From a virus: DNA of 36,010 nt. The notes under the pieces are model-generated. The model saw only the letters and a list, made by a program, of their open reading frames with translations. It made no database searches and was not told where the DNA came from. The stretch's first letter is position 1, and each line of letters begins with the position of its first letter. The stretch lies in the UHGV virus genome UHGV-0022223; one strand, given 5' to 3'. Shown one piece after another: positions 11,002 to 14,371 of this stretch. The translations under genes and the position numbers were made by a program.

Positions 11002-11292
11002 ATGGCAAATTTACGCAAAGAGGCTCGTGGTCGTGATTGTCAGGTTCGAATTCCCGGCGTCTGCAACGGTAACCCGGAAACGTCTGTACTGGCGCACATT
11101 CGCCTGGCCGGGTTATGTGGCACCGGAATCAAACCGCCTGATCTGATTGCCACCATTGCATGCTCTGCCTGTCACGACGAGATCGACCGCCGTACACATT
11201 TTGTCGATGCTGAGTATGCTAAAGAATGCGCGCTGGAAGGTATGGCGAGAACGCAGGTTATCTGGCTGAAAGAGGGGGTAATCAAGGCGTGA
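11002..11292 (+). CDS. ybcO: YbcO-like (DUF1364) putative nuclease
   Basis: Internal ATG start ([34 protein letters not shown]...) matches E. coli DLP12 YbcO from memory. Confidence 0.7.
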
Positions 11293-11651
11293 ATACTTAC
11301 AACATCACATTGCCCTGGCCGCCGAGCAATAACCGCTACTACCGCCATAATCGCGGGCGCACGCACATCAGCGCAGAAGGGCAGGCATACCGCGATAACG
11401 TCGCCCGAATCATTAAAAACGCAATGCTGGATATCGGTCTGGCTATGCCTGTGAAAATCCGCATTGAGTGCCACATGCCGGATCGCCGTCGCCGTGACCT
11501 GGATAATCTGCAAAAGGCCGCTTTTGACGCACTCACCAAAGCAGGTTTCTGGCTGGACGATGCTCAGGTCGTTGATTATCGCGTTGTGAAGATGCCCGTT
11601 ACCAAAGGTGGAAAGCTGGAACTGACAATCACCGGGCTGGAGGCCGTATGA
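11289..11651 (+). CDS. rusA: RusA Holliday-junction resolvase
   Basis: GTG start overlapping the ybcO stop; [25 protein letters not shown]...[19 protein letters not shown] matches E. coli RusA from memory; 120 aa. Confidence 0.85.
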
Positions 11652-11784: not shown

Positions 11785-12567
11785 ATGAACCTTGAAAACA
11801 CAGTGAAATACCACTTCGCTAAATCCACACTGATTAGCGATTCTCCGCGCGCTACCGCCTCCGATTCACTGACCGGTACCGACATAATGGCTGCCATGGG
11901 CATGACGCAGGAACGCGCCGCAATGGGTTACAGCGCCTTCCTCGGCAAGATGGGCATAAGCAATAACGACCGGGATCGGGCGATCGGTCTGCTGGCTGAG
12001 TACGCGATGACAAAATGCGACAAGGTTGCCGCACTGCGTAAGCTCGGTGCCGCGGTTAAACCTCAGGTGATTCACCAGTTGGCCACCTTCGCTTTTGAGG
12101 ACTATTCCCGCAGCGCTGCCAGCGTGAAGCAGTGCGATTGTTGTGACGGTCAGGGCTTCATTGAGGCTGACGTGTTTACCAATAAATTCCGTAAGCCAGA
12201 AGGGAAAATGACCGTGTCCGGGATGGTGAAGGTCAAAGAATCCATCAAAGTGCTATGCAAAAAGTGTAATGGCTCTGGTGTGGTTAGTGCTTCTTGCAGT
12301 GATTGCCATGGGCGCGGCAAGGCAGTGAACCAGGCTCTTACTGAGAAACAGGGCGTTCCTGTTCTGGCTGACTGTAAGCGCTGCGGAGGGCGTGGGTATG
12401 AACGACTTCCGTCGACTGAAGCCTATGCTGCTGTATGCCAGATTACTGACGCCATTAGCCTGGACACCTGGAAAAAGTCTGTTAAGCCATTCTACGACCT
12501 GCTGATCACGAAATTTGATATCGAAGAGTCCTGGGCCGAAAAACAGCTTAAGCAGATAACGCGGTAA
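11785..12567 (+). CDS. Q: Late-gene antiterminator Q family
   Basis: 260 aa with paired CxxC zinc-finger motifs; last regulatory gene before the late promoter and terminator region and the lysis genes; RBS GGAGAAG. Confidence 0.65.
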   Translation: MNLENTVKYHFAKSTLISDSPRATASDSLTGTDIMAAMGMTQERAAMGYSAFLGKMGISNNDRDRAIGLLAEYAMTKCDKVAALRKLGAAVKPQVIHQLATFAFEDYSRSAASVKQCDCCDGQGFIEADVFTNKFRKPEGKMTVSGMVKVKESIKVLCKKCNGSGVVSASCSDCHGRGKAVNQALTEKQGVPVLADCKRCGGRGYERLPSTEAYAAVCQITDAISLDTWKKSVKPFYDLLITKFDIEESWAEKQLKQITR

Positions 12568-12666
12568 CGCCTATAGCGATAGCCTATGATTTTGTCTTGG
12601 GCTATTTACTTTTCCCGAATCTGTGTTAATTTTGTCCCAACGATGGGTTAATGCCTTCGTTTCAAG

Positions 12667-12696
12667 CCCTGCGGATAACACCGTGGGGTTTTTTGC
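12667..12696 (+). terminator. tR'-like terminator of the short late leader transcript
   Basis: CCCUGCGG-auaaca-CCGUGGGG (two G-U pairs) followed by U6, about 100 bp downstream of Q. Confidence 0.5.
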
Positions 12697-12778
12697 GTTT
12701 CTGGATACTGATATGCCAAGAAGAGTGGTAATCAGGTAGTATTCATTCAATAAGTAGGATGCAGAAGGTAATAGCATT

Positions 12779-13348
12779 ATGGAAAATATTACTGGCGAAT
12801 ACTTTTTGGATGCTGACGACGAGCTTGTCGATTACCTTGAAAAGCAGGGTGAAGAATGCATCAAAGAGGCTTACCACTCGAACACTGTCAATATTGAGAA
12901 TGGCTATAAGCTGCTCAATATTCAGATCGTCGGTATTGGCTCTTCGTTTTTACTCCTTACTCAAAAAACGAACTGGGACTACCTTGCTGTTGGTATCGCT
13001 GCATTTACTTTCTTGTGGACATGGTGCGCAATATATCTTGTCCACTCAGGGTTGTCGGTTAATGTCAGGGCGTTGATTTCTGCACCGCCAGATAGTCTTT
13101 ACACTAAGAGCTTTAAAAGTATCGATAGCGACGATCACCAGTGGTTTCGAGGAAATGGCTACACCGGGACTGAGAAGACCCTTCCCATTATCCGGCGTTA
13201 CCGCTTGGCTGATCTGTGTAAGACGTCAAAAGAGATGCTGGTATTAAACAAAAGAATTAGAACGCATCTTGATAGAGCAAGGATCATGACAATCCTTGCT
13301 CCGGTAGTGTCTATAATGGCATCAGCTATTGCTTTTTGTTATCTCTGA
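12779..13348 (+). CDS. Hypothetical membrane protein (AT-rich moron between Q and the lysis cassette)
   Basis: 189 aa with two central hydrophobic segments and a C-terminal hydrophobic anchor; lower GC than neighbours. Confidence 0.6.
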   Translation: MENITGEYFLDADDELVDYLEKQGEECIKEAYHSNTVNIENGYKLLNIQIVGIGSSFLLLTQKTNWDYLAVGIAAFTFLWTWCAIYLVHSGLSVNVRALISAPPDSLYTKSFKSIDSDDHQWFRGNGYTGTEKTLPIIRRYRLADLCKTSKEMLVLNKRIRTHLDRARIMTILAPVVSIMASAIAFCYL

Positions 13349-13481
13349 CAAAGTCAGCAGAATCGCCGACAAATACACGTCTCGTGGCAAATTCTTTTGC
13401 TGGCTGGGGTTGAGGCGCGGGTTTTGGAGCTTCAGTCGATTGTGATTTATTTTCGTTTTGTGGCTGCTTTTGTTCAGACAT
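13326..13481 (-). CDS. Small Pro/Gln-rich ORF, convergent with and overlapping the membrane-protein gene
   Basis: ATG at 13481 with RBS GAAGAGG; 51 aa (MSEQKQPQNENKSQSTEAPKPAPQPQPAKEF...); below the track cutoff. Confidence 0.2.
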   Translation of the reverse strand: MSEQKQPQNENKSQSTEAPKPAPQPQPAKEFATRRVFVGDSADFVRDNKKQ

Positions 13482-13716
13482 AAAAACCTCTTCGTTTGAG
13501 TTGTTACTTTTGGCGATTTAACGATATCAAACGCGAGGTTATACCGCCAGACACATGATCTGGCCCTTCACTTTGCCCTGGCGTTTGCCGGGGCTTTTTC
13601 ATTTCCGGCTCACGGTAATCATCCGCTACGTGCTTTGTTGATAAATCCAACCCGTGAAGCCTGAGCCTATTTCCCCTCATACCTGAGAGGACTCACAGCA
13701 ATTAAGAGGGGGCTAA

Positions 13717-14103
13717 ATGTCCGATCCAATTTCCGGTACTGGGCTGGCTGGTGGTGCCCTGACGGGTGCCAGTGTTTATGGACTGCTGACCGGAACTGAT
13801 TACGGCGTTGTATTTGGCGCATTTGCAGGGGCTGTATTCTACATAGCAACAGCAGCAGATCTGAGTGCATCGCGCCGACTGGCATATTTTATCGTGTCAT
13901 ATATTGCCGGGATTCTTTGCTCTGGGTTGGTTGGCTCCAAGCTGGCGAACTTGACCGGATACAGTGATAAACCTCTGGATGCTATTGGTGCCGTAATCGT
14001 CTCTGCTTTAGCCGTTAAAATCCTGACGTTCCTGAATAATCAGGATATCGGCTCGCTGGTGGCGCTCATAACGCGCCGGGGAGGTTCAGGTGGAGCTAAA
14101 TGA
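13717..14103 (+). CDS. Holin-like membrane protein
   Basis: 128 aa, Gly-rich with several hydrophobic helices; RBS AAGAGGGGG; first gene of the lysis cassette. Confidence 0.55.
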   Translation: MSDPISGTGLAGGALTGASVYGLLTGTDYGVVFGAFAGAVFYIATAADLSASRRLAYFIVSYIAGILCSGLVGSKLANLTGYSDKPLDAIGAVIVSALAVKILTFLNNQDIGSLVALITRRGGSGGAK

Positions 14104-14371
14104 CCCGACAGCAACTATAAATGCGCTGTTATGTGCTTGTGTTGTTATTACTCTGATGTTTTATCGTCGTGGTGATTCGCGGCATCGTCCTTGGGTTTCA
14201 CGTTTAGCCTGGCTGATTACTGTTACATACAGTGCTGTTCCGTTGGCCTATCTCTGTGGGATTTATCCTCATTCCTCATGGCCCATTATCGTGGCGAACA
14301 CTATTTTTCTTTCCGTGCTGGTGGCCGTCAGAGGCAACGTTGCACGTCTGGTTGATCATCTGAGGCACTAA
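14090..14371 (+). CDS. Holin / antiholin-like small membrane protein
   Basis: 93 aa with 2-3 hydrophobic segments; stop overlaps the endolysin start. Confidence 0.5.

Follow-up and report, generated by a model that had tools for sequence, protein, structure and literature searches.

The UHGV virus genome UHGV-0022223, a sequence of 36,010 nucleotides (nt) that was analysed as a whole and is referred to here as the window, represents a lambdoid prophage, in which genes for RusA (11226–11651) and for a Q antiterminator of family PF03589 (11785–12567) precede a set of lysis genes: two holin genes (13717–14103 and 14090–14371), a GH19 endolysin gene and an Rz-like spanin gene. Between Q and the first holin gene lie two convergent open reading frames (ORFs). 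ORF189 (12779–13348, + strand, ATG start) encodes a predicted inner-membrane protein of 189 aa that matches PHROG 11870 (E 9e-79), while ORF51 (13326–13481, − strand) encodes a hydrophilic protein of 51 aa that matches PHROG 14506 (3e-16) and overlaps the 3′ end of ORF189 by 23 nt.

An initial annotation of this region, made from the sequence without database searches, had described ORF189 as an AT-rich moron for a membrane protein, located just downstream of a tR′-like terminator, and had mentioned in passing a small, convergent, Pro-rich ORF with a strong ribosome-binding site. All of these features were found, and the moron reading has held up, given the deviant composition, the presence of other cargo at the same site in phages mEp237 and HK225 and the occurrence of an identical allele on other backbones. 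However, the small ORF had been underrated: it is an obligate, conserved partner gene, so that the unit is a two-gene cassette. The ORF189/ORF51 pair is a mobile moron cassette, which travels across phage backbones and accessory slots.

Boundaries and composition of the cassette

The cargo cassette extends from about 12706 to 13594 and comprises a promoter-like block, ORF189, ORF51, a block upstream of ORF51 and the stem of a + strand terminator. Morons are recognised by a composition unlike their surroundings and by a terminator of their own; here, the G+C content of the insert (12706–13588) is 43.5% against 52–53% in the flanks, and a terminator hairpin lies at 13575–13602. The low G+C content of ORF189 relative to its neighbours, noticed at the outset, amounts to 43.3% against 52.6% for Q, 51.9% for the first holin gene and 52.1% for the window, with third-codon-position G+C of 0.47 for ORF189 against 0.60 for Q.

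Similarity between the window and phages mEp237 and HK225 ends at 12705 and resumes at 13578–13589, with unrelated genes in between. Alignment of these junctions places the left one directly after the T-run of the tR′ terminator, at the motif GCGTTTCTGG, and the right one at the T-run of the second, + strand terminator, for which the HK225 and mEp237 cargos each supply their own stem. The slot is occupied in mEp237 by gp56 (L011 2968–3609) and in HK225 by gp67 (L012 2637–3047, − strand), each an unrelated hypothetical gene with its own terminator stem. The motif GCGTTTCTGG, at 12698–12707 in the window, is common to backbones with unrelated Q genes (the window and locus L015) and may serve as a boundary at which cargo is exchanged by recombination.

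Genomic contexts

An identical ORF189 occurs in L015 behind a Q gene of family PF06323, whereas the Q of the window belongs to PF03589. Escherichia coli W619 has Q and the cassette as in the window, followed by a different lysis cassette, and E. coli AR_0119 combines the same backbone with an ORF189 allele that is 49% identical. Within the close family, the upstream neighbours are Q proteins of four families (51 of 56 distinct proteins), and the downstream neighbours include holins of at least five families. Distant homologues occur in other settings: the small ORF begins 16 nt after cI in L106 and 47–48 nt after a repressor-type or cI-operon gene in L110 and L103, in each case co-directional with that gene, while the homologue in L096 sits in a Mu-like packaging region and that in L098 in an apparently non-phage context. 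A DNA match over the 3′ part of the cassette was found in at least 160 of 5,426 complete E. coli genomes.

These contexts bear on whether ORF189 might be a lysis-timing accessory—a holin regulator, an antiholin or an additional pore resembling a holin—that is expressed from pR′ along with the lysis genes. Such a role would suit a small multi-helix membrane protein encoded immediately upstream of holin genes in the late transcript, and PycTM-like pores, to which we return below, target the same membrane as holins. However, ORF189 matches no holin family, a terminator stands between it and the holin gene, and it is absent from mEp237 and HK225 although both flanks match; moreover, in W619 the cassette precedes a different lysis cassette, and the distant relatives next to cI or in the Mu-like packaging region are far from any lysis genes. 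Because the cassette is associated with four Q families and at least five holin families, and its distant relatives are found next to cI or in a Mu-like phage, it is best regarded as cargo and not as a lysis component; a conserved component of the lysis module, the alternative raised by the initial annotation, is not what the distribution reveals. Among the rival explanations, a lysis accessory is the least compatible with the distribution data, and we consider it very unlikely.

Other genes were seen near some cassettes. In L024 (4814–4965), L026 (4820–5127) and L029 (4820–5053), the cassette and the holin gene are separated by two to four tRNA genes (Met, Leu, Phe, Thr, Gly), and the downstream terminator of the cassette is missing; tRNA genes likewise sit upstream of stx in Stx phages. 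A Rac-like prophage of E. coli AR_0369 (L013) has a 61%-identical cassette; iteA and iteS, annotated as anti-phage genes, precede its nin-like region (L013 1–2447), and, as in prophage Rac, trkG follows the lysis genes.

Conservation and three-helix structure of the inner-membrane protein ORF189

The central hydrophobic helices and C-terminal anchor noted initially in ORF189 correspond, in the topology check, to three predicted transmembrane (TM) segments: TM1 at about residues 45–62 (IVGIGSSFLLL), TM2 at about 69–90 and TM3 at about 168–188. A conserved acidic helix, DDYFLDADDELVDFLEKQGEE, lies at the N-terminus. The region between TM2 and TM3 (residues 91–167), predicted to be cytoplasmic, is basic (14 K/R against 8 D/E), which suggests that the N-terminus is inside and the C-terminus outside. 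An AlphaFold2 model, with a mean predicted local distance difference test score (pLDDT) of 81.7, has three long helices at residues 14–62, 68–92 and 134–188.

Database searches recovered 122 relatives of ORF189, all from Enterobacterales and nearly all exactly 189 aa long, with no Pfam domain or informative name among them. Members of the same cluster occur on hundreds of contigs from E. coli, Salmonella, Citrobacter and Klebsiella. An alignment of 45 relatives contains 22 invariant residues, and conservation peaks in the acidic N-terminal helix, in TM1 (IVGIGSSFLLLTQ) and at P104, RRYRL and N157, the last three of which lie in the basic region. An exhaustive search with a profile built from these relatives gave 106 representatives at 50% identity, mostly of 160–200 aa, and each of the 70 sequences in a wider alignment (A2) has a match in PHROG 11870, whose function is unknown. 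ORF189 is thus a conserved three-helix inner-membrane protein.

ORF51 is an obligate convergent partner

ORF51 has the outline MSEQKQPQNENK...KPAPQPQP...EFATRRVFVGDSADFVRDNKKQ, with a start of the form MS.., a first half rich in Lys, Pro and Gln, a conserved motif (DF..R..VGDSA[DE]) and a Lys-rich tail. The strong ribosome-binding site attributed to it is a Shine-Dalgarno sequence, GAGG (13487–13490, − strand), which can be read five nt before the ATG; GGAG or GAGG occupies the equivalent position in most relatives. RefSeq or GenBank annotates the gene in L001, L003, L013 and L014. A homologue search with ORF51 returned two near-identical proteins only, the word index being ill-suited to short, low-complexity queries, and partners were instead located by position in 94 related loci drawn from genomes and viral contigs.

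The partners found in this survey are convergent with ORF189 and fall into 37 distinct alleles of 48–64 codons, with a 3′ overlap of 20–35 nt. Their median ratio of non-synonymous to synonymous substitution rates (dN/dS) over 297 pairs is 0.33, which indicates purifying selection. Under strict criteria, a partner is present in 88 of the 91 loci with an intact ORF189; two of the three exceptions vary in an A-run at codons 4–6 and the third has a diverged partner. The A-run in question, an A7 tract at the partner start (GAAAAAAAC), is one base shorter in L051 and L039, which creates a frameshift; L039 also contains an N, and the change could be a sequencing error or could mark a slippage-prone tract.

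The pairing outlasts recognisable sequence similarity of the small protein. ORF189 homologues at about 20–30% identity (L096, L103, L106, L107, L110 and L111) each have a convergent overlapping ORF of 42–86 codons, which is rich in Pro and Lys and often contains an F.DS or FDH motif.

A membrane protein paired with a small hydrophilic partner might also be a toxin–antitoxin or addiction module, which stabilises the prophage or the cassette itself and plays no part against other phages. The convergent 3′ overlap resembles that of the type I systems txpA/RatA and bsrG/SR4, in which convergent genes on Bacillus prophages overlap at their 3′ ends. In keeping with such a module, the cassette is highly mobile, and L010 has a frameshifted ORF189 beside an intact partner. 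On the other hand, a 189-aa toxin opposed by a protein-coding ‘antisense’ gene fits no canonical toxin–antitoxin type. Since many prophage toxin–antitoxin systems have proved to be defence systems, it may moreover be artificial to separate the two. We regard a pure addiction module as unlikely.

Regulatory anatomy

Conservation of regulatory elements was scored in 26 representative loci. The tR′-like terminator reported in the initial annotation was recovered by the terminator scan as an intrinsic terminator of the phage backbone at 12664–12700 (+ strand), with an 11-pair stem followed by TTTTTTGCGTTTC, about 80 nt before the ATG of ORF189. Its counterpart in HK225 is annotated as a rho-independent terminator, and a hairpin with a T-run lies 33–123 nt upstream of the ORF189 homologue in 21 of the 26 loci. 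It probably ends a short pR′ transcript. Between the Q stop codon and this terminator, at about 12598–12630, the window contains TTTACT and TAATTT separated by 16 nt, in a stretch that is nearly identical in mEp237, HK225 and AR_0119; this is a candidate pR′ promoter, from which the terminated transcript would measure about 65 nt.

Alignment of upstream regions revealed a block, TCAGGTAGTAT (family consensus TTCAGGTAAAAT), at 12732–12742 on the + strand, which is a candidate promoter for ORF189. It includes a −10-like hexamer, TAGTAT (12737–12742), 36 nt before the ATG and with no good −35. The block was found in 21 of the 26 loci, in 19 of them 28–35 nt from the ATG, and it also precedes the distant homologue in L106. 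A second block, TTGATATCGTTAAATCGCCAAAAGTAAC, lies upstream of ORF51 at 13501–13530 on the − strand, where it reads TTGATA-TCGTTAAATCGCCAAAAG-TAACAA; it is a candidate promoter or operator with a good −35, a spacer of 18 nt and a poor −10. Found in 20 of the 26 loci, it is the best-conserved cassette DNA in E. coli genomes: all 17 matches of the 60–80% identity band among those listed, out of 158 records in that band, align with query positions 700–1057 at about 75% identity.

The right-end terminator of the cassette, also recovered by the terminator scan, lies at 13575–13602 (+ strand) and consists of GCCCTGGCG-TTTG-CCGGGGC followed by TTTTTCATTT. A hairpin with a T-run is present 219–303 nt past the ORF189 stop codon in 18 of the 26 loci, and in most related loci terminators flank the cassette on both sides. 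Transcripts starting at the cassette promoter would be stopped here, ahead of the holin gene, and would be antisense to the entire ORF51 mRNA; a stop before the holin is a safeguard required only if ORF189 is made in lysogens. A search of 12400–13900 against Rfam gave only a sub-threshold match to suhB/mmgR on the terminator region.

Further along, in the interval that leads from the cassette terminator to the holin gene, about 95 nt (13595–13690; CATTTCCGGCTCACGGTAATCATCCGCTACGTGCTTTGTTGATAAATCCAACCCGTGAAGCCTGAGCC) are at least 90% identical despite different cargo in HK225 and mEp237 and different holin genes in W619; they may serve the late transcript as a regulatory or RNA element. A 58-codon ORF on the − strand at 13504–13680 was rejected as a gene: it overlies the terminator and this conserved backbone block, is unannotated in RefSeq relatives and has a weak PHROG match. 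Just upstream of the ORF189 homologue in L110 (about 330–420), three inverted-repeat, operator-like copies (TTCTACAAGTGTAGA) adjoin a repressor/cro-type immunity region, and the large gene of that locus may be under repressor control.

Where the small ORFs lie directly downstream of cI and in the same direction, they are presumably co-transcribed with the repressor. That they directly follow cI in three independent, distant loci suggests production of the small protein in lysogeny, while the late-operon orientation of ORF189 in the slot between Q and holin suggests that its level rises on induction. The same arrangement would be compatible with a reversal of roles, in which ORF51 is the effector expressed in lysogeny, such as an inhibitor directed at a host or phage target, and the late-expressed ORF189 its neutraliser. 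Co-directionality of the small ORFs with cI in L106, L110 and L103, and of ORF189 with the late operon, agrees with this; such a neutraliser would let the phage escape its own product, as in the Tai/Ati pair of phi80, a precedent for a lysogenic defence gene combined with a Q-dependent anti-defence gene (PMC11364771). We nevertheless hold a reversal to be highly improbable: ORF51 is mostly low-complexity sequence with one short motif, ORF189 is larger, better conserved and linked to known effectors, and homologues of ORF189 occur at cI-adjacent loci outside any late operon.

A lead to PycTM-type effectors

The homology and structure searches called for by the initial annotation revealed a conserved family, without connecting ORF189 itself to characterised families or folds at significant scores. 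Neither ORF189 nor ORF51 matches Pfam, NCBIfam or PADLOC, and in PHROGs both match families of unknown function only. The best match of the family profile among sequences of solved structures (PDB) has an E-value of 0.6, and fold searches with ORF189 gave generic long-helix matches only. Distant members of the family match the Pfam families 8xMP, DUF6249 and PycTM below cut-off, and in NCBIfam only SLATT_1, at an E-value of 0.1. A literature search on ‘8xMP’ gave nothing relevant, and our literature searches returned no described system with this two-gene architecture.

Comparison of the 70 A2 members with the PADLOC models provided the one family-level link. Five match the PycTM model PDLC02364, and two match the ‘Effector 2TM’ model of the cyclic-oligonucleotide-based anti-phage signalling system (CBASS). 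The best of them, P0144, matches PDLC02364 over residues 17–182 (model positions 7–152 of 160; E 1.5e-8) and the CBASS ‘Effector 2TM’ model PDLC00700 at 4e-5; P0193 matches PDLC02364 at 5.5e-4. P0144 is homologous to ORF189, with a BLASTP E-value of 1e-17, an hhalign probability of 99.4% against alignment A1 and a shared DDYFLD.DDE..EYLE, and its gene lies in a prophage with a convergent small ORF of its own (L107). A search for homologues of P0144 did not reach bona fide cyclase-linked PycTM proteins. In the same prophage, a SIR2_2-domain gene (L107 11806–12567), which ends the early-left (RecT/YqaJ/SSB) operon, may be another defence cargo.

PycTM is a pore-forming effector of abortive infection that is activated by cyclic pyrimidines (PMC11224242). 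No gene for PycC adjoins the cassette, whose neighbours are Q, holins, cI or Mu-like genes. The sole cyclase-family gene among the neighbourhoods examined is in L098 (1930–3747), where a class III nucleotidyl cyclase (PF00211) of 605 aa with tetratricopeptide (TPR) repeats is encoded, in non-phage surroundings, two genes upstream of P0215, the remotest homologue of ORF189 (E 4.9e-4); its proximity is possibly a coincidence, though notable in view of the link to PycTM. Since the Pfam score amounts to only 16 bits and NCBIfam gave nothing, the relationship of the ORF189 family to PycTM, as it emerges from these profile comparisons, is treated as a well-supported lead and not as membership. Through P0144, it lends support to the possibility, raised in the initial annotation, of exclusion or abortive-infection cargo at this site.

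This link also bears on whether the cassette serves superinfection exclusion, with ORF189 in the inner membrane blocking the entry of incoming phage DNA in the lysogen or late in infection and ORF51 modulating it. HK97 gp15 and P22 SieA are precedents for such a block, and ORF189 is a predicted inner-membrane protein encoded by prophages in classical moron slots. Divergent alleles on one backbone would be predicted if specificity were under selection, and the late-operon orientation suits exclusion in the lytic cycle. Exclusion nevertheless seems improbable: the sole family-level link is to PycTM/2TM pore effectors, and hhalign comparison of the ORF189 family with lambda SieB (0.3% probability) gave no sign of homology. 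The strictly conserved, convergently overlapping partner is a further difference, as we know of no exclusion protein accompanied by a gene of this kind.

Discussion

We propose that ORF189 is a PycTM-like inner-membrane effector and ORF51 its small protein regulator, together forming an abortive-infection or toxin–antitoxin-like module; the probability of this interpretation is in our estimate about 45%. ORF189 would then belong to the PycTM/CBASS-2TM class and, once triggered, would oligomerise and permeabilise or depolarise the inner membrane. There is no cyclase in the cassette, and the regulator would therefore be ORF51, which, possibly together with mutual antisense transcription, would keep ORF189 in check. 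In the lysogen, a weak promoter within the cassette would drive transcription of ORF189 as far as the cassette terminator, and a leftward promoter of its own would serve ORF51. Were ORF51 to be lost or titrated away, for instance because a superinfecting phage had shut off gene expression in the host, ORF189 would be released and would kill or arrest the infected cell, following the logic of abortive infection and toxin–antitoxin systems. On induction, polymerase modified by Q would pass both terminators and run counter to the ORF51 promoter, tipping the balance towards ORF189 late in the cycle.

Several points weigh against this interpretation. The promoter scan called neither promoter-like block, and both lack a canonical sigma-70 −35/−10 pair, so the promoter assignments are hypotheses. 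The link to PycTM is transitive and is backed by PADLOC models only: ORF189 itself matches no model in PADLOC, Pfam or NCBIfam, the Pfam PycTM family (PF18967) scored 16.1 bits against a cut-off of 27.2 bits, and transmembrane composition may inflate PycTM profile scores. A membrane toxin expressed in the late operon ahead of the holin might cause premature lysis. In addition, a labile ORF51 antitoxin tied to cI should make prophage induction itself abortive, for which reason ORF51 may act as an adaptor or a sensor and not simply as an antidote.

A bolder version of the PycTM-like effector model, which we advance tentatively and think more doubtful than probable, is that the cassette represents a new prophage immunity module, in which a cyclase-independent PycTM-like pore is gated by a Pro/Lys-rich protein of about 50 aa and by a convergent-transcription switch. 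The switch would sense the state of the phage, its inputs being either the repressor operon or the ORF51 promoter, on the one hand, and late transcription driven by Q, on the other. In the lysogen the module would stay silent; heterologous infection would set it off, and the late phase of the phage’s own cycle would override it.

Every record examined labels the cassette proteins ‘hypothetical’, and the 2023 PADLOC models do not detect the cassette. It is widespread and hence a worthwhile target for anti-phage and toxicity assays. Should it prove to act in defence or as a toxin module, the PycTM/2TM effector family would gain a branch without a cyclase, tiny Pro-rich proteins that gene callers often miss would acquire a role, and there would be a clean example of convergent overlapping genes acting as a switch sensitive to lysogeny and lysis. 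It would also be relevant to how prophages influence the phage susceptibility of clinical Enterobacterales, and hence to phage therapy.

Comparison with known systems

As regards systems already described, ORF189 has no match to a holin family, and the cassette has no constant linkage to any one lysis cassette. Type II toxin–antitoxin systems have co-directional genes, whereas those of the cassette are convergent in every locus examined. With type I systems, the cassette shares a membrane-acting product, a convergent partner overlapping at the 3′ end and location in prophages; it differs in that ORF189 is a protein of 189 aa with large soluble parts and not a hydrophobic toxin of <60 aa, and in that ORF51 is a protein under purifying selection, with no match to an Rfam family. 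Control at the RNA level in the cassette is, for its part, inferred.

The SieB system of P22 and lambda, in which SieB (184 aa in lambda) is accompanied by the sas antisense RNA and by Esc, is similar as a phage-borne abortive-infection gene of comparable size that is transcribed against its neighbours and controlled by antisense. However, there is no homology, and the gene on the antisense strand of the cassette encodes a conserved protein. Lambda rexA–rexB likewise is prophage cargo that includes a membrane protein, and the distant cassettes of L106, L110 and L103, like rex, are flanked by cI and the early-left region, and one gene of each seems to share a transcript with cI. A two-component logic of abortive infection, as in rexA–rexB, is plausible by analogy. 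The differences are that ORF189 has no relationship to RexB (hhalign probability 0.1%), that the cassette genes are convergent and do not form one operon, and that the partner is tiny and disordered-looking, unlike RexA.

The lambdoid morons located between Q and S (stx and those of the HK97/HK022 type) share with the cassette a slot directly after tR′, deviant composition, terminators on both sides in most loci and presence or absence among otherwise similar phages. The cassette differs from them in consisting of two convergent genes rather than a single gene or operon and in occurring also in slots outside the late region. The Tai/Ati pair of phi80 is likewise carried by a prophage, with one product made in lysogens and a second that requires late transcription driven by Q (PMC11364771); Tai, compared here by its description, lies upstream of the packaging module and so in a different slot (PMC11364771).

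Closest to the proposed effector are PycTM and the 2TM effectors of CBASS, which are, like ORF189, small, all-helical inner-membrane proteins of about 160–190 aa, and with which ORF189 would share, by inference, disruption of the membrane leading to abortive infection. The cassette departs from them in its neighbours, which are Q and holins rather than an adjoining pyrimidine cyclase or cGAS/DncV-like nucleotidyltransferase (CD-NTase), in the three predicted membrane helices of ORF189 in place of two and in its partner, a convergently encoded protein of 42–86 aa that is rich in Pro and Lys.

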